Shown here piece by piece: positions 2,619 through 62,311 of a DNA stretch of 64,000 nucleotides; the first letter of the stretch is position 1, and each line of letters starts with the position of its first letter. Location: the NCBI GenBank assembly GCA_052035175.1, contig JBPOHV010000001.1:41569-105568 (forward strand), given 5' to 3'. Position numbers and translations under genes: made by a program. The stretch is from a candidate division WWE3 bacterium (GTDB lineage: Bacteria; Patescibacteriota; WWE3; UBA101185; UBA10185). The notes under the pieces are model-generated. The model had not been told where the DNA came from and ran no database searches. It saw only the letters and a list, made by a program, of their open reading frames with translations.

Positions 2619-4916
2619 CTATACGCTTAATTGGTCTGGCCATTTGGTTACGATCAATGCATCTTCATCAGCATCTCTAACATGTGACCATAATTCCTCT
2701 GTAACAAAAGGCATAAATGGGTGTAAAAGTTTGAGACTATTCTTTAAAACTACACGTAAAACACACAAAGAAACATCTTTCCTTTCGGAAGTCTTTGTAT
2801 ATTCAATATAATCAGACGCCAAAGTATCCCACATAAAATGATAAAGTGCATCTCCAGCATCTGCGAAGCGATATTTTTCCAAACTAGTTGTAACAGCAGT
2901 TATTAACGCGTTGAAATCTAGAATAAGTTGTTTTTCTTTGTCACCCAAAGCATTCTTTATACTAGCCAAATCTTTGGGTACACCACCAGATTGCATAAAA
3001 GCGTCGTTTTCTAAAATATCTATAAATCTGACCATATTCCAAATTTTGTTTGCAAAATTCCTATAAGCTATAACTTTATCTTGAGGAAAAGAAAAGTCTT
3101 GCCCGGTTGCTGTACCACTAATCAAACCCATACGCAAAGCGTCTGCACCATAAGTTTCTACCGCATCCAAAGGATCAACTTGATTACCCAAGCTCTTGCT
3201 CATTTTTTTGCCATCAGCAGCTCTTACCAACCCATGCAAATATACGTCTTTGAATGGTGCTTTACCTGTAAGGTATATTCCAAACATAATCATGCGACTA
3301 ACCCAAAATCTGATGATTTCCCAACCTGTTTCTAATACAGCAGTTGGATAAAAATAATTGAAATCTTCACTATTTGGATAACCTAAAGTAACAAGTGGCC
3401 AATGACCGCTGCTAAACCATGTATCAAAAACATCAGTTTCTTGTAAATAATATCCAAACGGTTGAGAAGCCGAAATCACATAAGACGCTTCTTTTGGAGC
3501 CATCAAAGATTGCAAACCTTTTTCTATTTCGACAAAAGTGTAGTCGCCACCATATGTATCTAATAAGTCTTTGAGAAGCCCATGTACACGGTTTCCATGC
3601 TTATCTAAAAAAGTAACCATAAGCTCAGGATTTTCTTCTACGCTATACCAAACAGGTATACGAATACCCCAAACTAATTGGCGTGATATAGGCCAATCGT
3701 GCATTTCTTCCATCCATTGCGTATATGTGATTTCACGCCATTTAGGATAGATTGTTACATCGCCATTTAACACAGCGTCTAATGCGGGCTTTTTCAAAGT
3801 ATCTACACGCACAAACCAATTGGGCAAAACCATTGGTTCAATTACGTGATTACCTTTATAACAAACTGCTACACTGTGCACATAAGATGTATCGATCTTT
3901 TCCACTAAGCCTTTTTCTTGCAAAATCTTTACGACCTCTTCTCTAGCATTATTTACAGACATGCCTTTAATATGAGCCAGTGCAGGGTAATTACTTACAG
4001 TATCAGAGACGCGCCCATCCAAACCAAGCATACTTATAACTGGCAAGTTGTGTTTTTTGGCAACGTCATAATCATTCTTATCATGACCGGGTGTAAGCTT
4101 TACTATACCTGTACCAAATTCTGGAACAACAAAGGTATCACCGATAATTTCCATTTCTACATTTGTAAGAGGATTTAACACTTTCTTACCAATAAGATGA
4201 GATTTGGTTTTATCTTCAGGATTAACTGCCAAGTGGGTATCTATAAAAATTGGCTCAGGACGTGTAGTGGCAACCACTACATAATCGTTACTATCAACAA
4301 AAGGGTACTTAATATAGTACAAAGATGTTTTGCGCTCTTCGTGTAGTATTTCTAGATCTGCAAAAGTTGTACCGCATTTGGGGCAATAATTGACCATATA
4401 ATTATCTCGATAAACTAAGTCTTCTTTTGATAATTTTTCGAAAGTTTTATAAACCGTATCTAAAACGTCTGACTCTAAAGTATATTTTTCACGAGACCAG
4501 TCTAGACTTGGACCTAGTGCGCGTACTTGCTTATGTATCGAGTCTTTACAATCTTCTACAAAGTTATGAACCGCGTCATAAAAACTTGCACGATCAAAGT
4601 CGAATCGCGACTTTCCTTGTTTAGCGAGTTGCTTTTCATAAACTACTTGTGTCTCAAAGCCAGCATGATCGGTTCCTGGCAACCACAAAGCACTATATCC
4701 CTGCATACGCTTCCAACGAACCAAAGTGTCTTCTAGAGCGATCATAAGTGCATGCCCTACATGCAACACACCATTAGCATTGGGGGGCGGTAACACTATT
4801 GCATACGGTTGCTTATTTGGATCACGCGATGCTTTGAAATAACCGCCTTCTTCCCACATTTTGTATATGCGTGATTCTACTTCTTTATGAATATATTTTT
4901 TTGCTAGTTCTGACAT
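2619..4916 (-). CDS. valS: Valyl-tRNA synthetase (class I aaRS), short form of 765 aa
   Basis: Motifs: PPPNANGVLHVGHAL (HIGH motif), KMSKSLGN, WPISRQLVWGIRIP. A CxxC editing/zinc motif is present. Confidence 0.85.
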   Translation of the reverse strand: MSELAKKYIHKEVESRIYKMWEEGGYFKASRDPNKQPYAIVLPPPNANGVLHVGHALMIALEDTLVRWKRMQGYSALWLPGTDHAGFETQVVYEKQLAKQGKSRFDFDRASFYDAVHNFVEDCKDSIHKQVRALGPSLDWSREKYTLESDVLDTVYKTFEKLSKEDLVYRDNYMVNYCPKCGTTFADLEILHEERKTSLYYIKYPFVDSNDYVVVATTRPEPIFIDTHLAVNPEDKTKSHLIGKKVLNPLTNVEMEIIGDTFVVPEFGTGIVKLTPGHDKNDYDVAKKHNLPVISMLGLDGRVSDTVSNYPALAHIKGMSVNNAREEVVKILQEKGLVEKIDTSYVHSVAVCYKGNHVIEPMVLPNWFVRVDTLKKPALDAVLNGDVTIYPKWREITYTQWMEEMHDWPISRQLVWGIRIPVWYSVEENPELMVTFLDKHGNRVHGLLKDLLDTYGGDYTFVEIEKGLQSLMAPKEASYVISASQPFGYYLQETDVFDTWFSSGHWPLVTLGYPNSEDFNYFYPTAVLETGWEIIRFWVSRMIMFGIYLTGKAPFKDVYLHGLVRAADGKKMSKSLGNQVDPLDAVETYGADALRMGLISGTATGQDFSFPQDKVIAYRNFANKIWNMVRFIDILENDAFMQSGGVPKDLASIKNALGDKEKQLILDFNALITAVTTSLEKYRFADAGDALYHFMWDTLASDYIEYTKTSERKDVSLCVLRVVLKNSLKLLHPFMPFVTEELWSHVRDADEDALIVTKWPDQLSV

Positions 4917-4919
4917 GAC

Positions 4920-5215
4920 TTCCTCTCTTTCCTATTATATAGATATATATAAATAACTTATATAAACGTTGTTTTTGAGAGGCTTCGTCTGAGGACGAAA
5001 GGTACCAGCCTTTCTATTGAAAGTTCCGCTTTGCGGTACGATCTACTTAATTTAGATTATTACGGATTCTCCGGCGAGTTCTATTCGCTAACGTTGATTA
5101 GCTTTCTTCTCACAGCGTTGTAAGGTGACATTAATTCCTTACTCTAGTGCTTTTCGATTAACCAAAGTTAGCATGAAAAGGTTAGAAGGGTCAAGCTTCA
5201 ACTTTTTGATTAATA
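4920..5215 (-). promoter_or_regulatory. T-box-like leader RNA with a Val (GUC) specifier, upstream of valS. Includes a Stem I hairpin, a UGGU antiterminator loop, a competing terminator/sequestrator helix and an anti-SD.
   Basis: Minus-strand reading of the leader, 5' to 3'. Stem I: GTAAGG-aattaatGTCA-CCTTAC (plus-strand coordinates 5120-5142). T-box motif: AATAGAAAGGCUGGUACCUUUCG (plus 5001-5018). In it, the GAAAGG/CCUUUC helix presents a CUGGUA loop. This helix is mutually exclusive with the UUCGUC-cuca-GACGAA hairpin (plus 4984-4999). A CCUCUC anti-SD (plus 4976-4981) lies ~45 nt upstream of the GAGAGGAAG SD and the ATG at 4916. Confidence 0.55.
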
Positions 5216-5270
5216 GATGCATTTTGCAACAAAGCTGTTTTTTCTGGTTAAACCTTTGTATAATGTGCCC

Positions 5271-6521
5271 ATGCGCTATAGTAGGCTTTTTGGCAAAACA
5301 AAAAAAGAAATACCAGCAGACGAAACAAGCAAAAACGCTCAATTACTTATTCAAGCTGGATATATTTATAAAGAGATGGCTGGCGTATACGCCTACCTAC
5401 CTTTAGGCCTACGCGTTATAGAAAAAATTAAGCAAATAGTCAGAACAGAAATGAATGCGATAGGTGGACAAGAACTCATTATGACGGCATTGCAAAGAAA
5501 AGATCTGTGGGAAAAAACAAATAGATGGGATGACGAAAAAGTAGACGTTTGGTTTAAATCAAAATTGAAAAATGAAACAGAAATAGGATTTGGGTGGTCA
5601 CACGAAGAACCAATCACAGAGATGTTAAACCAATTTGTACACAGTTACAAAGACTTACCAATATTTGTATACCAATTTCAAACTAAATTGCGTAATGAGT
5701 TGAGAGCAAAAAGCGGAATAATGCGAGGCAGAGAATTTGTAATGAAAGATATGTACTCTTATACGCAAAATCAAGCCGAGCACGATAAATTTTATGCACA
5801 AGTTACCGAAGCCTATATGCGCATATTCACACAATTAGGCCTGGGAAAAGAAACTTTTGTTACGTTTGCATCTGGAGGCGCGTTTACCGAATACAGTCAT
5901 GAATTTCAAACCATAACAGATGCAGGAGAAGATAATATCTATATCAGCTTTGAAAAAAATATTGCGATTAATGAAGAAGTTTTAAACGAAAAAACTTTGG
6001 AAAAGTTAAATATAAAAAAAGAAGAGTTGACACAAGTAAAAACCGCAGAAGTAGGTAACATATTTGACTTTGGTACAGTAAAATCCGAACAATTAGAACT
6101 AAAATACGCTGATAACACAGGATCTATTACTCCCGTACATCTTGGATCTTACGGTATTGGTATAACAAGAGTAATGGGTGTAATTGCAGAAAAGTTTGCC
6201 GATGAAAAAGGCATTGTCTGGCCAGAAAATATCTCACCTTACAAAGTGCATCTAGTAGGTTTGAACCTGGATAATGAAGAAACAAAGGTTCAAGCCGAAA
6301 AAGTATACAAAACATTAATTGATAACCAGATAGAGACCTTATTTGATGACAGAGTGGAAACAAGTGTTGGGCAGAAATTGAGTGACGCAGATTTAATAGG
6401 AATACCAAATAGGTTATTAGTATCAAAAAAAACAGGAACAAGCGTTGAATTTAAAAAACGAAATGAAGAAGCAAGCTCCACAGTATCTGTAGACGAAATT
6501 CTACTAAAACTCAAAAACTAA
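5271..6521 (+). CDS. proS: Prolyl-tRNA synthetase
   Basis: MRYSRLFGKTKKEIPADETSKNAQLLIQAGYI matches the ProRS N-terminus. Class II motifs are present. The start was chosen at the second Met of the track ORF. A TATAAT box lies 10 nt upstream, so the mRNA may be leaderless. Confidence 0.85.
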   Translation: MRYSRLFGKTKKEIPADETSKNAQLLIQAGYIYKEMAGVYAYLPLGLRVIEKIKQIVRTEMNAIGGQELIMTALQRKDLWEKTNRWDDEKVDVWFKSKLKNETEIGFGWSHEEPITEMLNQFVHSYKDLPIFVYQFQTKLRNELRAKSGIMRGREFVMKDMYSYTQNQAEHDKFYAQVTEAYMRIFTQLGLGKETFVTFASGGAFTEYSHEFQTITDAGEDNIYISFEKNIAINEEVLNEKTLEKLNIKKEELTQVKTAEVGNIFDFGTVKSEQLELKYADNTGSITPVHLGSYGIGITRVMGVIAEKFADEKGIVWPENISPYKVHLVGLNLDNEETKVQAEKVYKTLIDNQIETLFDDRVETSVGQKLSDADLIGIPNRLLVSKKTGTSVEFKKRNEEASSTVSVDEILLKLKN

Positions 6522-6528
6522 AAGTTAG

Positions 6529-7092
6529 TTAATCTTTAATATATTTAAATAAAGCCTCGAAAAGACTGGTATAGACCGCTTTATCTGTCGTAGTGGGTAA
6601 TGTTAAATTTAAATTAACAAACGAGCTATGTTTTTCGCTTGATGAAGACATAGAAGTGTCATCAGGCACTTGTTGTGCATCAACAAAAGGGTGACCGGAT
6701 AATGACAACAAAGCTAACAAAGTATCAGTATATAAAACAGCAGTAGAGTGACTAACGGCAGTCTGTTTTAAAAACTCAGACACGAGTGAAGCATGTGTCA
6801 ATACTTGTGACACAAGTACCGTTTTATAGTTGGTTTGTATGCAAGAATATAAAGTGGTATGAAACAAAGTAGCATCACGTAGAAACATGTATGCGTCAGT
6901 AGGCACACCATCTGCAGATATAAAACCCAAAAACCTTAATAAATTAACAAAGTCTCTATCTTGTGAACTTGTAAACTTGCACACAGAAGAAAAAAACCTG
7001 TAAGTAAACTTTCTAGGAACCTCCTCTACTTTAATAGCATTAAAATAAGCGGATAACTTATCTAGAGACCTAACAACAGGAAATGTGAACAT
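6529..7092 (-). CDS. Hypothetical protein
   Basis: Long ORF convergent with proS. No motif recognised. Confidence 0.4.
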   Translation of the reverse strand: MFTFPVVRSLDKLSAYFNAIKVEEVPRKFTYRFFSSVCKFTSSQDRDFVNLLRFLGFISADGVPTDAYMFLRDATLFHTTLYSCIQTNYKTVLVSQVLTHASLVSEFLKQTAVSHSTAVLYTDTLLALLSLSGHPFVDAQQVPDDTSMSSSSEKHSSFVNLNLTLPTTTDKAVYTSLFEALFKYIKD

Positions 7093-7101
7093 ATATACAA
7101 G

Positions 7102-7199
7102 TTTTCCACAATGACATACAGTATGTCAATACACTGACACGAATACGTGGGTGTGTGGCATAAAATGCAGATGTTATGACACAGGTAAAATGTGGATAA
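7102..7199. promoter_or_regulatory. Two DnaA-box-like 9-mers in an intergenic region (TTTTCCACA at 7102-7110; TGTGGATAA at 7191-7199)
   Basis: The second 9-mer is a perfect match to TTATCCACA (reverse complement). It shares the 14-mer ATGTGGATAAGTTG with the box at 12861. Confidence 0.35.
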
Positions 7200-7224
7200 G
7201 TTGTGCAAATATACTATTAACTGG

Positions 7225-8274
7225 TTAGACGGCTGTGTTTATACTTATAGAAGGAAGTGCTTGAATAGACGATAGTTGTGGTAACCGATATGATGAGAAC
7301 TTAGTTTTGTAATAGGCAGCTGCCGCTATATAAACAGCATTATCTGTACACAAATAAAGAGGTGGTACAAAAGTTTTTATATTTTTTTCACCGGCAGCTG
7401 CCTCGATACGTGAACGCAATAACGAATTCGCACTGACACCACCCCCAAGTAAAATACACTTAACAGCATATTGATCTGCCGCCTGTAATACCTTGTGTTG
7501 TAAAACATCAACTACAGCCTGTTCAAATGAATAAGCAACTGCAACATTATTGTACAAATTGGATGCAACAACACGCTTTATAGCAGTTTTCAAACCAGAA
7601 AATGACATATCACTCGTCTTAGAATCAAACATAGGTCTAGGCAATATCGGTAAAGTACCGTGCAATTCTGGAGTATACGTCTGGGCAAGTTTAGAAAGCT
7701 TTGCACCACCAAGGTACTTACTTATATCCAAAAGGCGAGCAGTTTTATCAAAGGCTTCACCAGCAGCATCATCCAAAGTACCTCCCAAAAAATCAAAAGT
7801 TGTATAATCGCGCATCAAAACTATGTCTGTATGACCACCGCTAACTACAAGCGCCAAAGCTGGGAAGTCTATTTCATTAATACGTGGATTGTCTACAAAA
7901 TTTGCATATATATGGCCAATCAAATGATTCACTGGTACAAGAGGTTTGTTCCATGCAAACGCCAATGCTTTTGCTGCCTCTACACCTATAAGAAGCGAGC
8001 CCACTAAACCTGGACCTACAGTAACTGCCAACATATCTATGTGGTCTTTAGTTATATTTGCTTTCGATAAGCACTGATCAATAACTGGAATTATACTTTC
8101 CAACTGCTTACGTGCTGCAATTTCAGGAATAACACCGCCAAATGACTCGTGTATATCTTTTGAAGTAGCCAAAGTTTCGCTAATAAGATGAATACTTTTG
8201 GGATTATTTTTATCATCTTGTACAATCGCGCACGCTGTTTCGTCACAAGATGTCTCTATTGCCATAATGGTCAC
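7225..8274 (-). CDS. tsaD: tRNA N6-adenosine threonylcarbamoyltransferase (Kae1/TsaD family)
   Basis: MAIETSCDETACAIV N-terminus. HxxGH metal motif (NHLIGHIYAN). Length 349 aa. Confidence 0.85.
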   Translation of the reverse strand: MTIMAIETSCDETACAIVQDDKNNPKSIHLISETLATSKDIHESFGGVIPEIAARKQLESIIPVIDQCLSKANITKDHIDMLAVTVGPGLVGSLLIGVEAAKALAFAWNKPLVPVNHLIGHIYANFVDNPRINEIDFPALALVVSGGHTDIVLMRDYTTFDFLGGTLDDAAGEAFDKTARLLDISKYLGGAKLSKLAQTYTPELHGTLPILPRPMFDSKTSDMSFSGLKTAIKRVVASNLYNNVAVAYSFEQAVVDVLQHKVLQAADQYAVKCILLGGGVSANSLLRSRIEAAAGEKNIKTFVPPLYLCTDNAVYIAAAAYYKTKFSSYRLPQLSSIQALPSISINTAV

Positions 8275-16269: not shown

Positions 16270-17801
16270 TCTTTTTGCGTGTCTATTTCGATATTTGTAG
16301 ATTCTGTTGGAATGTTTCTAAAGAATGGCATAGTTGGAGCTATATTAATCTCATATGTGCTTATATTCCTTATTTCGCTGATTATCCTTGCAGCCTCTTG
16401 TTGATTTTTGCCTGCTAGTTCTTGTTTTAGCGTTTCATCATTTATGTCTGGTACCACAAAGGTTTTGAGCGTGACTTGTAAATCGGCTTCTTGTGATGAC
16501 AATTTGGTTTGCGCCGATTTCCCCAAAACTTCTGTTTGGATTTCTTCATCTTTTGTTGATAATACGAAGCCTTGAGGCACTAATTCCTTGGTTACTTCTT
16601 GCATCACCTTTTCTAGGTCATTTGGTGCATATACAAGGCCTTTTATATTTAAAGTTTGGTTTAGTGTTAGTTTGTTGGTTTCGTCATTTTCTTTATGACT
16701 GAGCGTTTCTTTTAACAGTATGATTTCTTCAGACCCATCTACAAGCTTTTGTGTATTTGCTATTTTTTCTTTTAATTTTCTTTTTGAGTTTTCATTGATT
16801 GTAGCCTTTATCTCTTCTTGTGCTTTTGCTATATCGGCTTTGGATACTACTTTCACAGTATCACTAGAACCGCCGTCCAAATCTTCTTTTACCTGGGCAT
16901 ATGCACTAGATGCAGAGTATTTATCTATATCCAACTTCTCGTCTTTGGCTATATTGTAGACTTTACCAAAGCCATTAGCTGTAATTGCAACATCTGCTGT
17001 ATGATATTTGACTACGCCTTCAGTTTCTCCCGGTGCCGGCGGAAGTATCTCACGCGCGGGTATTGATACTTCTTCGTCTGTTTTGTATTCCAAATCTTCT
17101 TCGTCAAATGTCAGTTTGGTGCCTTTTTTTAATTCAATGTCGTTGTCTGTGTTGTTATATATAGTTACAGTTCCTTGCGCGTAGTTACCTATCAATTTTT
17201 CTCCTGTAGTTTCTATTTCTATAGCTTCATCTATTGTTGTTTCTACTGTTTTGCCAGAAATGACTTTTTGATCTGGCGACGCTTGTCCGCTAGCTAGTAC
17301 TTTTATTTGTAAACTCCTTGTTAATGGTTGCGAGTTAACAACTATCTTGATATTTGCATGCGGTAGTGTTTTGCCCACGTATATATATGTTGCTGCTAGT
17401 AATGCGAAAATTACCCCAATCACTATCGGCGTTTTTTTCATATTTGTTTGTGAAAAGTTTGGTAAACGTATTTGCATTTTATTAAATTTAAATTTACTCA
17501 AATCTGGCATTTGTAAACCCAGCTTGAATCTACTTGTGTTACTTTGTTCTAACGTGTTGTCATTTTCAATTGTATCATCGAGTAAATTAATAAGACTTTG
17601 TGCTTTTCGATCATTTGTAATGAAATGTACCGTTTTACCTTGTTGTTCTAATTGCTTTTTTATTAGTTTAAGATTGACAACATTTTCAGCAATCAAAGCA
17701 TCTTCCGGGATTTCTAGTTCTATCCCAAAATCGTTTATATCTTTTATTTTATTTATTACAGAAATTACATTGTCGTGTATTTCTAAAGCTAGTTTAGTCA
17801 T
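16266..17801 (-). CDS. Bitopic membrane protein. 125-aa cytoplasmic N-domain, one TM, ~370-aa extracytoplasmic domain. Operonic with the actin-like ATPase.
   Basis: TM helix PIVIGVIFALLAATYIYV. Overlaps the upstream gene by 4 nt. An internal INLL motif (SLINLLDD) is present. Confidence 0.5.
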   Translation of the reverse strand: MTKLALEIHDNVISVINKIKDINDFGIELEIPEDALIAENVVNLKLIKKQLEQQGKTVHFITNDRKAQSLINLLDDTIENDNTLEQSNTSRFKLGLQMPDLSKFKFNKMQIRLPNFSQTNMKKTPIVIGVIFALLAATYIYVGKTLPHANIKIVVNSQPLTRSLQIKVLASGQASPDQKVISGKTVETTIDEAIEIETTGEKLIGNYAQGTVTIYNNTDNDIELKKGTKLTFDEEDLEYKTDEEVSIPAREILPPAPGETEGVVKYHTADVAITANGFGKVYNIAKDEKLDIDKYSASSAYAQVKEDLDGGSSDTVKVVSKADIAKAQEEIKATINENSKRKLKEKIANTQKLVDGSEEIILLKETLSHKENDETNKLTLNQTLNIKGLVYAPNDLEKVMQEVTKELVPQGFVLSTKDEEIQTEVLGKSAQTKLSSQEADLQVTLKTFVVPDINDETLKQELAGKNQQEAARIISEIRNISTYEINIAPTMPFFRNIPTESTNIEIDTQKE

Positions 17802-19054
17802 AATTCTTCAAATAAACTTACAAGCGCTTCTGGCTTAAACCATTCTACTGATTGTATTTTACCAGTTGCATCGTGTATATACGGTTCTATTTGGTTTAGT
17901 GTAATTCTATAGATTACAGGGTTACCTTTGAAAGGTATGCTGCGCGTCCATTGTGTAGTGTGCAAGACTTCTAGCGTGTCTTTTATTTGCATACCCTTTC
18001 CAAAAACATAAATATTTGGTGGAAAAGTTCTAACTCCTGTAAATTCTGAGAATAAAATTTCGACACCGCTTAGCCACATATTGGTTATCTCAGCTAAACA
18101 AGTTTTGATAGTGTCTACTTCGGCTTGTGTTAGTGTGTTTTTGCAATAAGCAGTCAAAACTCTTTGACCTTCTTCTAATGTAATACCCATTTTTAAACTC
18201 AATTCCTCTGCAAAGTGCCTGTATCCAATATTTAACACGCGCGTGCTTACTATACCTCCACCAAAGACAACACATATTTCTGTGTAGTCTTCTTCGATGT
18301 CCAATAATAAACAATCTAGTACATTGATGTTTAACTTTTTTAACGATTCTAGAATCGCGTACAGCTCTGATCCTATTGTGAGAAGTGTAAGCTGGGCTTT
18401 GTTGACACACTTTTTCAGCGTATCCACATGCTTTTTTGGTGTGAATGATGATGATAACGCTTGTTCTATTGTATCGCCGGTAAGGTTATATGTGCGTATT
18501 TGTTCATCCGAGACATATCTGCCGTCAATCTTTGTGTAAACAATATTTGAGGATGTGTCTATCAGATCTGTTTCTGTATTGCCGGTGATTTCAATATATT
18601 GGTTATAAGCTTCTATGCTTGCTGCGTCGGTGATTCTTTTTGAAATGTCTTGGAGCTCTTTTGGTGTAATAGCGCTTTCTCTGTGTGCGCGCACTGATTT
18701 TGCAGTTGTTATGACTCCAAGAGATAACTCACCAGAAACGCCTAAAATAACGCTATTCACAAAGTCTTCTTGTTCTTGATTTATTTCTTGCACAACTGAT
18801 GCTAGTGCCTGTGTTAACAAATCACTTCTAATTATATTTCCGCCTCTTATTGTGCCCGGCTCAAGAAAATGTTCTGCAAATGCAATTATTTTATATGGGG
18901 CTTGTGGCGCAACAGACGGTACGATGTTCGTATTTTGATCTGTTTGCGTGTCTTTATAGATAAGTAAACATTTAACTGATTCGCAGTTTATACTTATTGT
19001 TAAAAATCTGTTTGGTATTGAGGGTGGTTTTGAGAAAAAGGGCAACTTAAACAT
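17798..19054 (-). CDS. Actin-like ATPase (FtsA/PilM/ParM superfamily)
   Basis: The 418 aa are consistent with a two-domain ASKHA fold. Degenerate phosphate-1 region LTISINCESVKCLLIY. Exact family not resolved. Confidence 0.45.
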   Translation of the reverse strand: MFKLPFFSKPPSIPNRFLTISINCESVKCLLIYKDTQTDQNTNIVPSVAPQAPYKIIAFAEHFLEPGTIRGGNIIRSDLLTQALASVVQEINQEQEDFVNSVILGVSGELSLGVITTAKSVRAHRESAITPKELQDISKRITDAASIEAYNQYIEITGNTETDLIDTSSNIVYTKIDGRYVSDEQIRTYNLTGDTIEQALSSSFTPKKHVDTLKKCVNKAQLTLLTIGSELYAILESLKKLNINVLDCLLLDIEEDYTEICVVFGGGIVSTRVLNIGYRHFAEELSLKMGITLEEGQRVLTAYCKNTLTQAEVDTIKTCLAEITNMWLSGVEILFSEFTGVRTFPPNIYVFGKGMQIKDTLEVLHTTQWTRSIPFKGNPVIYRITLNQIEPYIHDATGKIQSVEWFKPEALVSLFEEL

Positions 19055-30690: not shown

Positions 30691-32496
30691 TTATTTCTTG
30701 AGCACTTCTCGGAAAGCTTCTTGAGGAATTACTATTTTGCCAATTGATTTCATGCGTTCCTTACCCTTTTTTTGTTTTTCGAGCAACTTATCTTTACGTT
30801 CTCTGTGGCCGCCAGACATTTTTGCTAAAACATTTTTACGAAAAGCTGGTATATCTTCACGCGCTAGTATCTTACCTCCAACTGCGGCTTGAATAGCTAC
30901 TTTGAATTGTTGTCTGGGTATTACATCTTTTAGTTTGCGGACAACTTTCTTGCCGTATTCGGCTGCTTTTGATTTGAGTACTATTTGTGACAAAGGTGCA
31001 ACTAGTTCACCATGTACCATAATATCCATTTTGATGGCATCGACTTCTTTGTAATTACAAAACTCATAATCAAGGCTTGCGAAACCAGAAGATATATTTT
31101 TTAGTTCGTCAAAGAAGTTAAATACCAATTCGATAAGAGGTAACTCATAATCAAAAATAACCCGATCTTCGCTTGGGTAATCCATTTTTAATAAAATGCC
31201 TCTTCTGTCCTCGCACAATGTGATTATCGATCCGGTGTACTCGGCTGGTGTAACTATTGTTGCTTTTATCCAAGGTTCTTTGATTTGTTCTATCTGAGTT
31301 ACTTCGGGAAAGTCTGTAGAGCTTTTTACATATACCATCTCGCCATCAGTTTTTAATATTTCATATTCGACCGTTGGTGTTGTAGAAATCAATTCAAGGT
31401 TATATTCGCGCTCGAGCCGTTCTTGGACGATATCTGCATGCAGTAGACCTAGAAAACCGCATCTGAATCCAAATCCCAACGCATTGCTGCTTTCTGGTTC
31501 AAATCTTAATGAAGAATCAGATAAAGAAAGTTTTTGTAAAGCTTCGCGTAATTCTGGAAATTTTGCGTTATCTAGAGGATATATAGATACAAAGACAAAA
31601 GGTTTTACTTCCTTGTATCCTGGTAATGGTTGTGTTTGTGTAACATCAGAAGCAAGTATCAAAGTATCGCCGACTTTTACTTTATGAATATCTTTCATAC
31701 CTGTTGCTATGTAACCGACCTCTCCTGTATAAAGCGCTTCGATTGGCAGTCTGCCTGGTTTAAATATGCCGATTTGTTCTGGTGTAGATTCTGCGTGAGT
31801 AGCCATAAATCGTATTTTTTTACGAGCTTTAACTACTGATTCGTCTATTTTGCCGTCTACTATACGCAATGCCGCCACAACTCCAAGAAATTCATCGTAA
31901 AAAGTATCGAATATCAAAGCACGAAGAGGGGACTCTGGTGTACCTTTTGGTTCTGGAATTTCTTTTACCACTCTATCGAGAAGTTCTTTTACTCCTAGTC
32001 CTGTTTTTGCTGATACACACATAATTTCTTCTTTTTTAAACCCGAAGTTTTTGACCATTGCTTGTGTAACTTTTTCTACTTCGGCATTTTGCATATCAAT
32101 TTTGTTTAATACCGGAATAATGTGCAGATTTGCATCTAGCGCTTTATATATGTTGGATATTGTTTGAGCTTGGATTCCTTGTGTTGCGTCTACTACCAAA
32201 ATAGCTCCTTCGCATGCCGCTAGTGATCGCGAAACTTCGTATGCAAAGTCGACGTGTCCTGGTGTATCTATAAGATTAAGTTGGTAAGTTTCTCCTTCGT
32301 AGTCGTAGTGCATACGCACAGGTTTTAGTTTTATAGTTATGCCTTTTTCTTTTTCTAACTCCATAGAGTCTAGAGTTTGTTCTATTAAATGCCTTTTATC
32401 TACGGTACCAGTCATCTCCAAGAACCTATCGGCCAAAGTTGACTTCCCGTGGTCTATGTGTGCAATTATGCAAAAGTTACGTATTTTTTGTTGCAT
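30691..32496 (-). CDS. lepA: Elongation factor 4 (LepA)
   Basis: IRNFCIIAHIDHGKSTLADR G-domain. LepA-specific C-terminal domain. Confidence 0.9.
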   Translation of the reverse strand: MQQKIRNFCIIAHIDHGKSTLADRFLEMTGTVDKRHLIEQTLDSMELEKEKGITIKLKPVRMHYDYEGETYQLNLIDTPGHVDFAYEVSRSLAACEGAILVVDATQGIQAQTISNIYKALDANLHIIPVLNKIDMQNAEVEKVTQAMVKNFGFKKEEIMCVSAKTGLGVKELLDRVVKEIPEPKGTPESPLRALIFDTFYDEFLGVVAALRIVDGKIDESVVKARKKIRFMATHAESTPEQIGIFKPGRLPIEALYTGEVGYIATGMKDIHKVKVGDTLILASDVTQTQPLPGYKEVKPFVFVSIYPLDNAKFPELREALQKLSLSDSSLRFEPESSNALGFGFRCGFLGLLHADIVQERLEREYNLELISTTPTVEYEILKTDGEMVYVKSSTDFPEVTQIEQIKEPWIKATIVTPAEYTGSIITLCEDRRGILLKMDYPSEDRVIFDYELPLIELVFNFFDELKNISSGFASLDYEFCNYKEVDAIKMDIMVHGELVAPLSQIVLKSKAAEYGKKVVRKLKDVIPRQQFKVAIQAAVGGKILAREDIPAFRKNVLAKMSGGHRERKDKLLEKQKKGKERMKSIGKIVIPQEAFREVLKK

Positions 32497-52444: not shown

Positions 52445-54397
52445 GTGTCAGACCTTTTGGAAAGTTTAAATTCAGAGCAATCACAAGCAGTTAGCCATTT
52501 GACTGGGCCGGCGCTGGTTGTAGCTGGTCCGGGTAGCGGAAAGACACGTGTATTAACATATCGTATTGCCAACCTTATTCACAATCATCGTGTAAATGAA
52601 AATGAAATATTGTGTGTTACATTTACAAACAAAGCTGCAGCAGAAATAAAAGAACGCGTTCAGAAATTGCTAGATGGAAATAAAATTTTGACATGGAGTG
52701 GAACTTTTCACTCGATTTGTGCACGTATACTGCGTAAAGATGGGTATCATATTGGGATTCCGATTTCTTTTGTGATTTATGATACAGATGATCAGATAGA
52801 TTTAATAAAAGAAATCAGTAAAAACTTTGGTATAGATCCCAAACAAGTAAAGCCATATTCAGCTCTTGCGACTATTTCAAATGCAAAGAGCGAGCTTATT
52901 GCTCCAGAAGCATACGAGCGATACGCTCATGGGTTTTTTCAAAAAACAGTTTCAAAAATATATTTTGAGTATCAACGACTTTTGAAAAAGAATAATGCTT
53001 TGGATTTTGATGACATTTTGGTCGAAACAGTTAACCTCTTTAAACAAGAACCGGCGGTTTTGGACAAGTACACGTCGATGTTTAAGTATATTTTGATAGA
53101 CGAATATCAAGATACAAACAAAGCGCAGTACGTTTTGACAAAGATGCTAGCGTCTCAGCATCAAAACTTATTTGTAGTAGGAGATATGTCACAGGCAATT
53201 TATAGTTTTAGGGGGGCAGATTATCGTAATATCTTAAATTTTCAAAACGACTACCCTGGTGCCGCTGTTTATAACCTGGCTAGAAATTATAGGTCGACAC
53301 AAAATATTTTGGACGCAGCAACGAGTTTGATTACAAATAATGCAACTCATATACCATTAGAATTGTGGACCGATTCGGGGACAGGAGAAAAAGTTACTAT
53401 ATATTGTGGGGGATCAGATACCGAAGAAGCCACATTTGTAATAAGTGAGATTAATAACTTTATTTCTAATGGGAATGATTTTAAAGATATTGCAATTTTA
53501 TATCGAACAAATGCTCAGTCACGAAACATCGAAGAATTTTTAATTCGTTCTAGTATTCCTTATAAAATAATTGGCGGATTGAGATTTTATTCACGTAAAG
53601 AAATAAAAGATGTGATTGCCTTTTTGCGTGTTGTAAAAAATCCAAAAGATTCTGTTTCATGGAAGCGTATTATAAACACTCCGCCCAGAGGTATAGGCCA
53701 AAAAGGGATGCAAGCTTTGGCAGATGCCGATTGGAATTTAGATTTGGTTGAGGCAACTTCAAAATTACCATTCAAAAAGTGGATCAAAGATTGTGAGACT
53801 ATGTCGACGCTAGAATTGATGACAGATATTTTGGAGGTAACAGGATATTTGAAGTGGTTAAATGATGGTAGCGATGACGGAAAAGATAGAATTGAAAATA
53901 TAAACGAACTCAAGTCTGTGTCGGCGCAATTTTTGGATGTAGGTGAGTTTTTGGAAAATGTCGCGTTAATAGAGAGCTCTGAAACACCAAAGTCAAAGAA
54001 AAAGTCTATGACAGAAGATAAAGACGATGTTGTTAGTCTGATGACTGTGCATTCATCAAAAGGTTTGGAATTTGCTTTGGTGTTTGTGATTGGTATGGAA
54101 GAAGGTTTGTTTCCGCATTCACAATCGATGGAAAACACAGATGAGTTGGAAGAAGAGAGAAGACTTTGTTATGTCGCGATTACGCGTGCAAAAAATAAGT
54201 TGATCTTGACTCATGCTAGATCTCGTTTGAGTTATGGCACGTATCAAAATAATATTCCTAGTAGATTTTTGGCTGAATTACCGAAGAATGTAATTATGCA
54301 ACTTGGTACTGGCAGTGCGCATTTTAGGCCAAAGTCTTACAATTTTGACGACGAGTTTTTGGAGGATGAAATTAATCGTAGCAATTTTACTTGGTGA
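52445..54397 (+). CDS. pcrA: ATP-dependent DNA helicase PcrA/UvrD
   Basis: LNSEQSQAV...VVAGPGSGKTRVL, DEYQDTN, VHSSKGLEF. Confidence 0.85.
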   Translation: MSDLLESLNSEQSQAVSHLTGPALVVAGPGSGKTRVLTYRIANLIHNHRVNENEILCVTFTNKAAAEIKERVQKLLDGNKILTWSGTFHSICARILRKDGYHIGIPISFVIYDTDDQIDLIKEISKNFGIDPKQVKPYSALATISNAKSELIAPEAYERYAHGFFQKTVSKIYFEYQRLLKKNNALDFDDILVETVNLFKQEPAVLDKYTSMFKYILIDEYQDTNKAQYVLTKMLASQHQNLFVVGDMSQAIYSFRGADYRNILNFQNDYPGAAVYNLARNYRSTQNILDAATSLITNNATHIPLELWTDSGTGEKVTIYCGGSDTEEATFVISEINNFISNGNDFKDIAILYRTNAQSRNIEEFLIRSSIPYKIIGGLRFYSRKEIKDVIAFLRVVKNPKDSVSWKRIINTPPRGIGQKGMQALADADWNLDLVEATSKLPFKKWIKDCETMSTLELMTDILEVTGYLKWLNDGSDDGKDRIENINELKSVSAQFLDVGEFLENVALIESSETPKSKKKSMTEDKDDVVSLMTVHSSKGLEFALVFVIGMEEGLFPHSQSMENTDELEEERRLCYVAITRAKNKLILTHARSRLSYGTYQNNIPSRFLAELPKNVIMQLGTGSAHFRPKSYNFDDEFLEDEINRSNFTW

Positions 54398-58139: not shown

Positions 58140-60971
58140 CTATCCCTTATATGCAAAAGGGCAAATGTCTTTGAAGTCACACCATTTGCAGTGCATACCC
58201 GGGTGAGCTTCGAAAACTCCAGACTTGATTTTATCTATAGTTTCTTTTACCTCTTGTTTTTTTTCATCGATGTCTTTTTGAGTGCGTGTTGTAGAAAGCT
58301 TTTCATTACTTTCAACAAAATAGTAAGTAAGTTTTTTTGGCGTGTATCCCAAAGCCTCCTTTGCTGCTAATGCATAAAAAGTGACTTGCGCATCTTTGTC
58401 GATCTCTTTTTGTGTTTTGGTTTGACCGGTTTTATAATCGATAATTTCGACACCATCCTCTAGTTGGTCTATACGGTCTATTTTGCCCAAAAACTTTATT
58501 CCATCAATCCAGACATTAAAGCTTTTTTCCAACGCCAAATGTTTTGGGTGTTCATTTTTATTTTGTTCATAATATCTTTCCAATAGTTTTTTACCTTCTT
58601 CAAATCTCAATTGTCTGTGTTTATCGTCAAAATATCCCAGAGGTTCCCACTTTGTTTTATAAATATCAAAAAGTTCTTCTAACGAAACATCTTTTGCCAT
58701 CTTTTTCATGTGAAAATCTTGTAATGTCGCATGTATGGTGTTTCCAAAACTAAACACATGGTTTGGTGCTACAGGTATGTTAAGAACGTACTTATATTTA
58801 TATTGCAGCCCGCATGTTTCATATGTATCTATTTGTGAATAGCTTAAGAATGGTGGAGAAAACTTTATTACACCTTTTCTGAAGTCAGTATCATGACCAA
58901 ATAGGCCTTGCTCAGATGTTGCTCCAGCAACGTATAACTCTGTTTTTAAGTGAGTTTCATCAAGATATCCTGTAGGAGTTGTTTCTTTTTTTCCTCCGTA
59001 GTCTTTGGAGTATGTTAAATACAATACATTCTTTGCACGCGTCATACCAACATAAAATAATCTACGTTCTTCTTGTATATGCTCATTGCCTGTAGGAAGA
59101 GATTCTTTTATAAGTTCATCTGGGATCTCAATTTGATCACCTTTATTTTTTGTGGGAAATCTACCTTGTACGAGATTTACCATAAATACAACTGGGTATT
59201 CCAACCCTTTGGCAGCGTGCACTGTAAGTAAATTTATTGTGTCTATATCTTCAATTTGTGCTTGTGCAGGGTTTTCACCAGCTTCAACAATAAGATCTAA
59301 ATAATCAACTAATTCGATTATGTTTGGCGCTACACCATTTTCACCGTGATAATCATTTTCAAATTGTTTGACGCGCTGTGCAAATAAATCTAGATTTTTT
59401 ATGCATAAGTGTGATTCAACACTTTCATTTTCCAAAAATTGTTGTAAATAATTTATATTGTTTACGAGAAAGAATAAAAATTCTACAGGCGCACTTTTGT
59501 GCAATTGCTCTTGAAGTATTGTAATCTTTTCGACAAATTGTTTGATGGTTTCGTCTTCTGATGCTTTTATAACTTCCCATAAGAAAGTTTTTTTAAATTT
59601 TGCTTGCGCAATATGTTTGCCTACCAAATCGTACGGGATCTCTAAACTTTGTATTGTAAGTACTCGGTAAAGATTAACTCCATCAAAAGGATTGATGAGT
59701 ATTTTTAAAAATGCTATCAGATCTTTGATTTCATCACGATCGTACAAGCCTCTATTTCCTACAAGTTGATACGGTAATCCAGCTTGTCGTAAACCTAGAA
59801 CAAAAGGTTCTAAATGATTATTCGCTCTAGCCAAAATAGCAATATCTTTAAAGTTTATTTCTGGGTTTGAGGAGATAACACTTTTTATCTCGTTTACTAC
59901 AAATTCAACCTCATCTGTTAGTGATTGAGCTTCTACTATCTTTGATTCTTTTGAGTTATCTAAATCTTCATTGGCTTGTATGAGTTTCTTGGATATCCCA
60001 AGTTTTACTTCTAATGTGTCAGGATTATTATTTTGTATTACATTATATGAACTGTCTAAAATAGTTTGAAGAGATCGATAATTTTCTGTGAGTGTTGTCA
60101 TTTTTGCTTTTGGGTAGTCTTTCATAAATTCTAAAATGTTCGAAACAGCAGCCCCTCTAAATTTATATATTGATTGCGAGTCGTCTCCTACTACTACAAG
60201 TGATCTCTTACTATTGTCATCTTTGGTGTACAACATTTTGATCAAAATATATTGTGCATAGTTTGTGTCTTGAAACTCATCTACCAAAATATGTTCAAAT
60301 TGCTTTTTATATTTTTCCAAGATATGTGGACGTGTTTCAAATAGTTTAATTGTCCAAGAAATGAGATCTCCAAAGTCCATATAATTATTTTTAATTTTTA
60401 ATTCTGAATAAGCTTTGTATATATAGGCTAATTCGTGCCAGCGCTGTTTTTCTTCAACATCGTCGACAGAATGTTCAGCGTATGTGCTGATTTCTTTTTC
60501 TGTAATACATTCGTCTTGTAAGCGTGAAACAAATTTTATAATTGCAGAAATAAATTTTGTCGGATTACCAAGTGGTCTAAAGTATTTCAAATCTAGGTCA
60601 AAAATATTTTTGCGCAAAAGTAACCATTGTTCTGGTGAACTTATTATTTTATAAGAAGTATCAAGCCCAATTTCCAAAGCTTCGTTGCGCAGTATTCTGT
60701 CTGCAAATGAGTGAAATGTGTAGACCCATGGTTCTTCGTATCCCAGTGGCATGATATCTCCTATACGTTGTGTCATTTCTGCTGATGCTTTTTCTGTAAA
60801 TGTAAGCGCCAATATATTTTGTGATCCTACTTTTTGTTTTTGTATAAGGTGGCTTATACGTTCTGTGATAACGCGAGTTTTCCCAGTACCTGCACCAGCT
60901 ACTACAAGTAGTGGCCCTGATTTATGTTGAATCGCTGACTTTTGATTTGCGTTTAGGTTAAGTTTATCCAC
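58140..60971 (-). CDS. UvrD-family helicase fused to a C-terminal PD-(D/E)xK Cas4/AddB-like nuclease with a 4-Cys cluster
   Basis: VVAGAGTGKTRVI, DEFQDTN, HAAKGLEYP. The C-terminus has IIDYKTG plus ETCG...CKWCDFKDICP (C-x2-C-x5-C plus an upstream C). Confidence 0.8.
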   Translation of the reverse strand: MDKLNLNANQKSAIQHKSGPLLVVAGAGTGKTRVITERISHLIQKQKVGSQNILALTFTEKASAEMTQRIGDIMPLGYEEPWVYTFHSFADRILRNEALEIGLDTSYKIISSPEQWLLLRKNIFDLDLKYFRPLGNPTKFISAIIKFVSRLQDECITEKEISTYAEHSVDDVEEKQRWHELAYIYKAYSELKIKNNYMDFGDLISWTIKLFETRPHILEKYKKQFEHILVDEFQDTNYAQYILIKMLYTKDDNSKRSLVVVGDDSQSIYKFRGAAVSNILEFMKDYPKAKMTTLTENYRSLQTILDSSYNVIQNNNPDTLEVKLGISKKLIQANEDLDNSKESKIVEAQSLTDEVEFVVNEIKSVISSNPEINFKDIAILARANNHLEPFVLGLRQAGLPYQLVGNRGLYDRDEIKDLIAFLKILINPFDGVNLYRVLTIQSLEIPYDLVGKHIAQAKFKKTFLWEVIKASEDETIKQFVEKITILQEQLHKSAPVEFLFFLVNNINYLQQFLENESVESHLCIKNLDLFAQRVKQFENDYHGENGVAPNIIELVDYLDLIVEAGENPAQAQIEDIDTINLLTVHAAKGLEYPVVFMVNLVQGRFPTKNKGDQIEIPDELIKESLPTGNEHIQEERRLFYVGMTRAKNVLYLTYSKDYGGKKETTPTGYLDETHLKTELYVAGATSEQGLFGHDTDFRKGVIKFSPPFLSYSQIDTYETCGLQYKYKYVLNIPVAPNHVFSFGNTIHATLQDFHMKKMAKDVSLEELFDIYKTKWEPLGYFDDKHRQLRFEEGKKLLERYYEQNKNEHPKHLALEKSFNVWIDGIKFLGKIDRIDQLEDGVEIIDYKTGQTKTQKEIDKDAQVTFYALAAKEALGYTPKKLTYYFVESNEKLSTTRTQKDIDEKKQEVKETIDKIKSGVFEAHPGMHCKWCDFKDICPFAYKG

Positions 60972-61034: not shown

Positions 61035-62171
61035 ATGAATATTTTACTCATAATTCTTTCCGTTTTTAGTGGTGTTGGTATAGCTCTTGGCTTTGTTTAT
61101 ATGTTCAAAGACAAATTCTTTGGGCAATCGATTGACCACACTGCTTTACTTGAACAAAAGCTAAATGAAATATTTCCTCAGGCTTTGAAAATGGCTACCG
61201 AACAGCTTGTCGCTGTTTCAGATCAAAAGCTTGATGCTAAACAAGAGGTTATTCAAAATGATTTAGCAAATAAAAAAGGTGCAATCGAAGATCTTATAAA
61301 AGGTATAAAGGCAGAACTTGATAATAGTAATAAAAAACTAGAAACCGCAGAAAAAGAACGTGTGGGTTCGTTTAGGGAAATAAAGGCAGAGTTAGAAAAT
61401 CAAAGAAAAATTTCAGAACAACTTTCTGTGACTACAGATAACCTGCGTAAAGTTTTATCAAATAATCAGTTGCGAGGTCAATTTGGTGAGCAAGTCGCTG
61501 AAGAACTTTTGCGTATGACCGGATTTGTGCGAGGAGTTGATTATGATTACAATATTGCGCAAGGTACGGGTACACGCCCAGATTTCACAATATTCTTACC
61601 AGATGGTGTAAAAATAAATGTTGATGCAAAATTCCCATATTCCAATTTGCAAAAATATCTCGAGCATGAAGACAAAGAATCACAATCTGTTTATTTAAAA
61701 CATTTCGAAACAGATATCAAAGAAAAAATAAAACAAGTAACCTCACGCGATTATATAAATCCTGAAGATAATACAGTTGACTTTGTACTTCTATTTATTC
61801 CAAATGAAATGATCTTTTCTTTCATTTATGAAAAGATGAACAGTGTCTGGGAAGAAGGCATGCGTAAAAAAGTAGTTTTTGTCGGCCCTTTTAGTTTTAC
61901 CGCAACACTTAGATTGGTAAGACAATCGTATGCCAATTTTAAAACTCAAAACAACTTACACAAAATAGTTTCTATGATAAATGAGTTTGATAAAGAGTTC
62001 TCGAAATATAACGAAGAATTTATAAAAATAGGTGAAAGAATCAAATCGCTAAGTAAGCAATACGATGAGGTCGATACCACAAGAACTCGCCAACTAGTAA
62101 AGATTGTTGAAAAGATCCATTTACAAGAACCTCAAGAATTACCTTTGTTACAAGAAACCTCTACTCTATAG
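61035..62171 (+). CDS. rmuC: DNA recombination protein RmuC
   Basis: N-terminal TM, long coiled coil, and the RmuC C-terminal nuclease-like domain (RPDFTIFLPDG...VDAKFP). Confidence 0.75.
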   Translation: MNILLIILSVFSGVGIALGFVYMFKDKFFGQSIDHTALLEQKLNEIFPQALKMATEQLVAVSDQKLDAKQEVIQNDLANKKGAIEDLIKGIKAELDNSNKKLETAEKERVGSFREIKAELENQRKISEQLSVTTDNLRKVLSNNQLRGQFGEQVAEELLRMTGFVRGVDYDYNIAQGTGTRPDFTIFLPDGVKINVDAKFPYSNLQKYLEHEDKESQSVYLKHFETDIKEKIKQVTSRDYINPEDNTVDFVLLFIPNEMIFSFIYEKMNSVWEEGMRKKVVFVGPFSFTATLRLVRQSYANFKTQNNLHKIVSMINEFDKEFSKYNEEFIKIGERIKSLSKQYDEVDTTRTRQLVKIVEKIHLQEPQELPLLQETSTL

Positions 62172-62239: not shown

Positions 62240-62311
62240 GGGCCCGAATCTGGTGGTTGATATTGCCTTAAGAACCAGGGTTTGTGGGTTCGATTCCCAT
62301 CGGGTCCACCA
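62240..62311 (+). tRNA. tRNA-like element with a canonical T-arm (GTGGG-TTCGATT-CCCAT), 7-bp acceptor (GGGCCCG/CGGGTCC) and encoded CCA. The D/anticodon region is non-canonical (37 nt).
   Basis: GGTTCGATTCC-CATCGGGTCC-A-CCA 3' end. The 5' GGGCCCG pairs with the 3' CGGGTCC. Only 37 nt lie between the acceptor and the T-stem, and no standard anticodon arm can be folded. Confidence 0.4.

Follow-up and report, generated by a model that had tools for sequence, protein, structure and literature searches.

The 64,000-nt stretch of DNA analysed here, called the window below, comes from a candidate division WWE3 bacterium (contig JBPOHV010000001.1, positions 41,569 to 105,568) and raises the question of how its gene for valyl-tRNA synthetase (ValRS), valS, is controlled. 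The gene lies at 2619-4916 on the minus strand and encodes a protein of 765 amino acids (aa), which matches the Pfam family tRNA-synt_1 at 1.6e-125, has an anticodon-binding domain and has homologues named valine--tRNA ligase. Divergent from it is proS, which most likely starts at 5271 (MRYSRLFGK...), as in public gene calls, and encodes 416 aa; given that start, the 354 bp assigned to the intergenic region by an earlier reading of the sequence alone is right. That sequence-only reading had proposed that the region, read on the minus strand, holds a T-box-like riboswitch controlling valS, and all the strings it quoted are found on this strand at 4917-5170. Unless another strand is given, coordinates of leader parts below refer to the minus strand.

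Based on comparison with related leaders and on predicted folds, we propose that the valS leader is probably a divergent T-box with a truncated Stem I that senses uncharged tRNA-Val and acts on translation through sequestration of the Shine-Dalgarno sequence. The closest ValRS homologues carry the labels WWE3, Microgenomates or Patescibacteria, and none more than 65% identical was found besides the same genome's own public copy.

A covarying family of valS leaders

We compared the window with 80 valS loci taken from species-representative genomes. A conserved leader is present upstream of valS in a subset of the genomes from the candidate phyla radiation (CPR), and most related valS genes have none. 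The leader begins with AAAGC, a bulge, GA or AA, a 6-bp hairpin with a loop of the form ..UAAUGUC(A/G), a second GA or AA, and GCU. A helix around AAGAA...UAGAA follows, then CGGGAAUGCCCGUUAUAGC, then ..UAAGUA... The 3' part consists of GAGAAGG(U/C)-UGGUACC-UUCC..GGA(A/G)-CCUCUC, a loop, GAGAGG and a run of U. We annotated the structure of seven of the relatives' leaders by hand and derived from them, leaving the window out, the covariance model R1. R1 matches the window once, at 4977-5144 on the minus strand and over the full length of the model, with 80.8 bits and an E-value of 4.7e-19 in 128 kb; E-values from R1 are rough, as its calibration was shortened. In 667 kb comprising the loci and the window, R1 matches 14 sites, every one of them upstream of valS.

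Beyond these, R1 matched five members in metagenome loci, mostly unrelated ones totalling 540 kb, and two among the nearest relatives. The metagenome loci had been selected by the pattern AAGGYTGGNACCTTY-N(8-38)-CCTCTC, 80 of at least 120 matching stretches being searched; the five members in them all have GUC, and three duplicate known ones. No other amino-acid specificity and no platform like that of the window appeared among these 80 of at least 120 loci. The heptamer UGGNACC by itself occurs at chance level, with 15 copies on the two strands of the window. It is because the whole arrangement is matched, at one site in 128 kb, and not UGGNACC alone, that we consider the element to be far above chance.

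The leader of the window is homologous to this family, whose helices covary. Across 14 leaders, 96.6% of the pair cells hold standard pairs versus 36-44% when the partners are slid by 1-3 columns, and double changes occur in 20 of the 26 pairs; none of 500 shuffles reached the observed values. The alignment used for these counts was fitted to R1, and the pairs are already in register in a plain MAFFT alignment. The helices supported are Stem I, with double changes at all 6 pairs, the base of Stem II, with compensatory changes at all 5 pairs, the Stem IIA/B pseudoknot, and A1 and A2, the two helices that flank the T-box bulge. Stem IIA is 97.6% paired and A2 100% paired among the aligned leaders. 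The IIB pairs covary as well: most leaders have GC/GC, the window has AU/AU and L015 has UC/GA, and all cells are paired. The window has compensations of its own in Stem I (GUAAGG/CCUUAC), the Stem II base (GUGAG/CUCGC), IIA (CGGA/UCCG) and IIB (AU/AU), suggesting continued selection on the structure.

The sequence-only reading had pointed to the GUC loop and the UGGU bulge as features to look for in orthologous valS leaders, and both are conserved there. Of 17 distinct valS leaders, 16 contain GUC and every one contains UGGU; the base after GUC is a purine in 15 and C in L002. In four of the genomes (L002, L020, L024 and L061) the divergent proS bears a sister T-box with the specifier CCU or CCC followed by A. 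These lie on the minus strand at 2307-2539 in L061, 609-820 in L020, near 2374 in L002 and near 1760 in L024, and show a canonical GA...GGAGC kink-turn (K-turn), a short Stem I with a loop ending in CCU-A or CCC-A, and AAGGUGGUACCACG. Since the specifier tracks the gene, with GUC at valS and CCU or CCC at proS of the same genomes, we regard the leaders as T-boxes. Neither R1 nor the Rfam scans gave a proS T-box in the window. Taken together, the R1 match, the covariation and the conservation of the specifier support the proposal of T-box control of valS in a CPR lineage.

We also related the family to the Rfam T-box model, RF00230. At its gathering score of 93 bits, the model matched a valS leader only in the Bacillota locus L079 (106 bits) and in none of the CPR loci. 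With an E-value threshold, it recognised two valS leaders, that of L073 with 48.6 bits (E 1.2e-7) and that of L015 with 38.9 bits (E 3.8e-5), and two proS leaders, those of L061 and L020, each with about 34 bits (E about 5e-4); all four alignments delete 72-87 positions of the distal Stem I. The best scores among CPR relatives are thus 27-49 bits, below the gathering score of 93; the valS leader of L080 has 91.5 bits and the Chloroflexi valS locus L074, a full-length form, 90.8 bits. That RF00230 aligns members of the family with the distal Stem I deleted argues that the CPR elements are T-boxes with a truncated Stem I.

Of four near neighbours of the window that were fetched, L202 and L205 possess the T-box together with a terminator, and no T-box is present in L203 or L204. 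Sequence comparison indicates that the T-box leader is ancestral in the clade and often lost. In all four, a gene for a DUF1232 protein of about 80 aa (L202 2251-2496, L203 2228-2464, L204 2227-2469, L205 2242-2496) sits between the T-box or promoter and valS, such that the T-box of L202 and L205 heads a DUF1232-valS operon. The DUF1232 gene is lacking in the window, where the T-box directly adjoins valS; a gap of about 280-310 nt is present in L002 and L004. The gene order TsaD, DUF5343, proS and divergent valS is common to the window (5271-8274) and to L203 (1-2168), in which the T-box is lost. The valS leader of L044 (2778-2909, plus strand) has 95.8 bits with R1, a Stem I loop UUAUUCC without GUC, and a Stem II reduced to a simple hairpin that lacks the UAGA strand. 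We take it for a copy in decay or for one with a different specificity.

Anatomy of the leader

We identified a putative promoter at 5165-5194, with a -35 box TTGACC at 5189-5194 and an extended -10 box TGCTAACTT at 5165-5173. This promoter was read by eye and is absent from the output of a consensus promoter scan; in relatives, TGCTATAAT or TGTTATAAT stands at an equal distance ahead of the leader. Transcription of the leader would thus start near 5158, from which the leader as a whole runs for about 240 nt, from about 5158 to 4917. The region had been described as GC-enriched and highly structured. Its GC content (0.35-0.41, flanks 0.31-0.47) shows no enrichment, and the minimum free energy (MFE) of the whole leader (z = -2.2 versus shuffles) supports structure, but only to a modest degree.

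The base of Stem I (5114-5151) resembles a K-turn, as judged from a hand parse of the window and its relatives outside the R1 model. It consists of AGC (5149-5151), a bulge ACUA, GA (5143-5144), Stem I itself, AA (5118-5119), an extra C and GCU (5114-5116). The general form in the family is a base helix, a bulge of 3-5 nt, and GA or AA opposite GA or AA. In many copies, including the window, an A.A pair replaces one of the sheared G.A pairs, the window also having the extra C. The base helix covaries, AGC/GCU being replaced by GGC/GCC in L030 and L205 and by CAAC/GUUG in L055.

Above this base, the R1 alignment places a truncated Stem I at 5120-5142, formed by the 6-bp helix GUAAGG/CCUUAC and closed by the terminal specifier loop AAUUAAUGUCA. 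The loop has 11 nt and ends in AAUGUC-A, with the specifier GUC at 5127-5129 and the purine A at 5126, which agrees with the GUC specifier followed by a purine that had been claimed for it. In the proposed mechanism, this short Stem I would offer the valine codon GUC and the purine from its terminal loop to tRNA-Val, and the decoding module would be completed by Stem II with its AAGAA/UAGAA loop and by the Stem IIA/B pseudoknot.

Stem II extends over 5074-5113. Its base helix pairs GUGAG (5109-5113) with CUCGC (5074-5078), and above it a purine-rich loop, in the position of an S-turn, sets AAGAA (5104-5108) opposite UAGAA (5079-5083), followed by a variable distal hairpin at 5087-5103. The AAGAA and UAGA of this loop are invariant in MAFFT alignments. 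In L073, RF00230 aligns its GAA/AGUA S-turn at this place, from which we infer that the loop folds as an S-turn. The Stem IIA/B pseudoknot (5055-5073) comprises the IIA hairpin CGGA-GAA-UCCG (5063-5073), an F-box-like CCGUAA (5060-5065) and the IIB pairs A5067-U5056 and U5066-A5057.

Between the pseudoknot and the discriminator lies an AAGUA linker (5044-5048), which is likewise invariant in the MAFFT alignments and at which RF00230 aligns its AGuG in L073. In solved T-boxes, RAG or RRRxG purines read the tRNA 3' end (PMC11297988, PMC7583486), and by analogy AAGUA may be their counterpart. The sequence and predicted fold then give a hairpin resembling Stem III, GUACCGC-AAA-GCGGAAC (5023-5039), with AA right after the CCGC/GCGG core ('Stem III-AA') and at 4-7 nt from AAGUA, depending on the choice of stem. 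Relative to most relatives this hairpin is an insertion, and it has no covariation. Most CPR valS leaders of the close type have no Stem III, their UAAGUA running directly into A1 (L002, L004, L047, L055, L054, L021, L030, L083/L205 and L104), and hairpins are inserted at this position in the window, L020 and L024. Structural work has called Stem III indispensable for the discriminator (PMC7583486).

The discriminator, or antisequestrator, occupies 4977-5014 in the R1 alignment. A1 pairs GAAAGGC (5008-5014) with GCCUCUC (4977-4983), A2 is the hairpin UUUCGUC-CUCA-GACGAA (4984-5000), and the 7-nt T-box bulge UGGUACC (5001-5007) stands between them, with UGGU at 5004-5007. A1 and A2 covary across the family, the closing pair of A1 being U-A, C-G or U-G, and C-G in the window. 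The UGGU bulge claimed by the sequence-only reading is therefore present between covarying helices, although the helices themselves had been assigned differently. The string AAUAGAAAGG-CUGGUA-CCUUUCG, located at about 4995-5018, had been taken to form an antiterminator-like helix GAAAGG-CUGGUA-CCUUUC, a candidate that we rejected in favour of A1, bulge and A2, which covary around UGGUACC. Similarly, the hairpin UUCGUC-CUCA-GACGAA exists, at 4984-4999, but it is A2 and belongs to the ON structure rather than being the alternative to it.

The GAAAGG/CCUUUC hairpin is mutually exclusive with both A1 and A2. The complementarity of the A1 5' strand to the first bases of A2 recurs as GAAGG-UUGGUA-CCUUC in relatives (L002, L004, L020, L021, L024, L030, L054 and L055), the window (4995-5014) adding an A and a U together; it is absent in the more canonical L015, L061, L073 and L202. 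On this sequence pattern, GAAAGG-CUGGUA-CCUUUC may be a conserved hairpin of the OFF state that places UGG in a loop. A second hairpin, CUUUC-AAUA-GAAAG (5010-5023), is specific to the window and predicted by two MFE folds, that of the whole leader and that of the expression platform. In the OFF state it could keep the A1 5' strand sequestered.

The sensing step would consist of pairing between UGGU of the bulge UGGUACC and the free 3' ACCA of uncharged tRNA-Val. A73 is the usual discriminator base of bacterial tRNA-Val, and the U of UGGU would fit it; the anticodon expected of the cognate tRNA is GAC.

Expression platform and competing readings

In 15 of the 17 distinct valS leaders, CCUCUC, a loop and GAGAGG are followed by at least five U, forming an intrinsic terminator. 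In L054 and L104 the GAGAGG of the terminator lies 6-8 nt ahead of the valS AUG, doubling as the Shine-Dalgarno sequence. The window leader contains no U-tract or terminator-like site. Its CCUCUC (4977-4982) consists of bases of the A1 3' strand, which is the 5' strand of the terminator in relatives, and here forms an anti-Shine-Dalgarno. An AU-rich spacer of 49 nt (4928-4976) replaces the relatives' terminator loop of 4-12 nt, and it leads to the Shine-Dalgarno GAGAGG (4922-4927), which is part of GAGAGGAAG (4919-4927) and is separated by a 5-nt spacer from the valS AUG at 4914-4916.

The sequence-only reading had placed CCUCUC so as to sequester this Shine-Dalgarno, and the predicted pairing with GAGAGG agrees with it. 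Each of the six pairs has a probability of 0.99-1.0 in the partition function computed for the platform, and the same pairing is found in both the MFE and the centroid structure of the whole leader. The sequestered fold of the platform is predicted at -24.9 kcal/mol versus -15.6 kcal/mol for the best fold forced into the antiterminator. The complementarity is unlikely to be accidental, because Shine-Dalgarno cores are found within 25 nt of the start in only 4 of the 36 large open reading frames (ORFs of at least 250 aa) in the window, and GAGAGG occurs only three times in 128 kb. The translational type suggested for the element is thus well supported by the lack of a terminator and by the Shine-Dalgarno being paired in the default fold, a model-based argument and not a demonstration. 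In the absence of uncharged tRNA, CCUCUC of the A1 3' strand would pair with GAGAGG and initiation would be blocked; uncharged tRNA-Val would stabilise A1, freeing the Shine-Dalgarno so that ValRS is made.

The only other valS leader lacking a U-tract is that of L015 (2944-3011, plus strand), in which the predicted fold pairs UUCAGUU of the A1 3' region with AACUGAA right ahead of the AUG. L015 may represent a second, independent switch from termination to occlusion of the start, there without an obvious Shine-Dalgarno.

Several results weigh against a translational T-box in the window. All close-type members except the window have a terminator, and the helix that would sequester the Shine-Dalgarno has only 6 bp, closes a 49-nt loop and has no covariation of its own, because no relative exceeds 65% ValRS identity. 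A1 of the window requires an A.C mismatch or a 2-nt bulge. A tRNA-Val gene was sought in the window and 85 loci, and none is present. Finally, the sequence-only reading had proposed RF00230 as a check, and this model, like every other in Rfam, has no match in the 64-kb window at its gathering score, nor does it have one in 4850-5300 at E<=10, where the Rfam scan returned only noise matches (snoR145, nuoG and BTnc231). We considered this silence as a refutation and rejected it, as the model equally misses every close CPR relative at gathering score, indicating that it is not sensitive enough for the CPR class.

Some of these points would also fit a relic, that is, a transcriptional T-box that has lost its terminator, with a 49-nt loop and no U-tract, and that no longer regulates, leaving valS constitutive. 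No other close-type member lacks a U-tract, and A1 of the window has the mismatch or bulge. T-boxes are also plainly dispensable in the clade: they are missing from most related valS genes, were lost in L203 and L204, and seem to be decaying in L044, which has neither GUC nor the UAGA strand. However, every module that contacts tRNA is intact in the window despite an identity of at most 65% between its ValRS and that of any relative. Stem I, Stem II, IIA and IIB all show compensatory changes in the window, and the anti-Shine-Dalgarno is perfectly complementary (6/6) to the Shine-Dalgarno in a genome that seldom uses one. We therefore judge a relic to be unlikely.

The family is ancestrally transcriptional, with terminators in 15 of 17 leaders, and the T-box of the window could function with another output, such as Rho- or pause-dependent termination in the AU-rich spacer or tRNA-dependent decay of the mRNA. 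The unstructured 49-nt spacer might conceivably load Rho or RNases. C-poor, AU-rich RNA is a poor rut site for Rho, though, and this spacer is of that kind; an intrinsic terminator is absent, and the sole downstream partner of CCUCUC is the Shine-Dalgarno, with a pairing probability of about 1. These observations make a different output improbable. That the leader senses no tRNA at all, being a protein-binding leader (for example, one through which ValRS would regulate itself by means of a tRNA mimic) or a set of T-box-like strings brought together by chance, would agree with the blindness of RF00230 to it and with UGGNACC alone being at chance level, but is hardly credible given the R1 match (E about 5e-19), the covariation supporting six helices, the fit of codon to gene in the valS and proS leaders of the same genomes and the sub-threshold RF00230 matches that tie family members to T-boxes.

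Many large ORFs of the window have a TATAAT or TAAAAT box 6-10 nt ahead of the start codon (for example, 17798-19054, minus strand; 61035-62171, plus strand; 7225-8274, minus strand; and 30691-32496, minus strand). The closeness of these boxes to start codons suggests that leaderless mRNAs are widespread in this organism. The proS gene has TATAAT at 5258-5263, 7 nt ahead of its ATG at 5271, and no leader, and its mRNA appears to be leaderless on this evidence. valS is a rare gene of the window in having a long leader and a strong Shine-Dalgarno. ARAGORN identified no tRNA or tmRNA in the whole 64 kb; a sub-threshold match to the tmRNA model RF00023 at 62240-62311 (plus strand; 28.6 bits, E 1e-7) covers a small part of the model. 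Two further sub-threshold matches, to RF03531 at 54122-54221 (plus strand, 45.6 bits) and 59004-59096 (minus strand, 38.5 bits), fall within the large ORFs 52445-54397 and 58140-60971. Rfam describes RF03531 (n00280) as a small RNA included in a helicase gene, and the two matches are probably conserved coding sequence, not RNA genes.

Significance and relation to known T-boxes

Beyond the window, we see an even chance that CPR/Patescibacteria have a minimal T-box class of their own, which mostly uses terminators and of which the window copy is a terminator turned pure Shine-Dalgarno sequestrator in a genome mostly devoid of Shine-Dalgarno sequences. Such a class would have leaders of about 130-170 nt with a 6-bp Stem I, a terminal specifier loop and usually no Stem III; its Stem II could be as small as about 20 nt, and its core would be AAGG(U/C)UGGUACCUUC. 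It would regulate at least valS and proS and would be invisible to Rfam.

The range described for T-boxes comprises Firmicutes, Actinobacteria, Chloroflexi and Deinococcus-Thermus, with horizontal transfer (TBDB preprint), and would extend to these ultrasmall, mostly uncultured bacteria. In the literature searched we found no paper linking T-boxes to CPR/Patescibacteria, which does not by itself prove that the link is unpublished, and the papers found describe no native riboswitch in this group. The group as a whole escapes the standard Rfam model, so that annotation pipelines list no T-box for these genomes. The long Stem I has been explained on kinetic grounds, and a family in which a truncated Stem I and intrinsic terminators occur together puts this explanation to the test. 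If true, the terminator-bearing copies with a short Stem I contradict the view that ties truncated Stem I to translational control, for which the reason given is that co-transcriptional decisions require fast contact with the tRNA elbow. The window copy would be a natural example of a terminator becoming a Shine-Dalgarno sequestrator. It would also imply that reduced genomes reliant on imported amino acids still monitor tRNA charging, at least for valine and proline. Patescibacteria are without inducible systems (PMC11665869), and the compact leader (about 130-170 nt in the class, about 240 nt in the window) is a potential native regulatory part for them.

Among the systems compared, the CPR proS T-boxes of L002, L020, L024 and L061 share the short Stem I, the terminal specifier loop and UGGUACC with the window leader, whose Stem I base resembles their K-turn, and their genomes share the divergent proS-valS arrangement. 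They differ from the window leader in the CCU or CCC specifier and in a more canonical core, AAGGUGGUACCACG. With the canonical RF00230 T-box, as found for example at valS of Bacillota, the window leader has in common A1, the 7-nt UGGNACC bulge, A2 and a competing downstream helix, as well as the Stem II, Stem IIA/B and F-box modules and the regulation of valS. Unlike the canonical form, it is missing the distal part of Stem I, where the AG bulge and the distal loop would be, presents its specifier in a terminal rather than an internal loop, and lacks a terminator.

Closest among known systems are the T-boxes that control translation of ileS in Actinobacteria and have a truncated ('ultrashort') Stem I, placed in class II of TBDB (PMC7583486, PMC11297988); examples are found at ileS of Mycobacterium tuberculosis and Nocardia farcinica (Sherwood et al. 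2015, as cited in PMC7778990). The anatomy of the window leader agrees with the list of T-box parts in PMC7583486, which names a specifier with C as its third base and a purine right after it, purines in the loop of Stem II, a compact IIA/B pseudoknot holding the F-box, conserved purines ahead of the discriminator and a 7-nt bulge between A1 and A2. The window differs from the actinobacterial T-boxes in regulating valS with GUC, versus ileS with AUC, in its CPR/Patescibacteria (Microgenomates/WWE3-like) lineage, and in its T-box core, which is AAGGCUGGUACCUUU versus AGGGUGGNACCGCG in Actinobacteria; most relatives of the window, moreover, join the short Stem I to an intrinsic terminator, and most lack Stem III. 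Like actinobacterial ileS leaders as these are described, that of the window has a short Stem I with codon and purine in its loop and no platform for docking the elbow, a specifier with C in third position, a purine-rich Stem II loop and a IIA/B pseudoknot with the F-box that finish the decoding module, a UGGN bulge in the discriminator and, as predicted for the window, sequestration of the Shine-Dalgarno by an anti-Shine-Dalgarno instead of a terminator.

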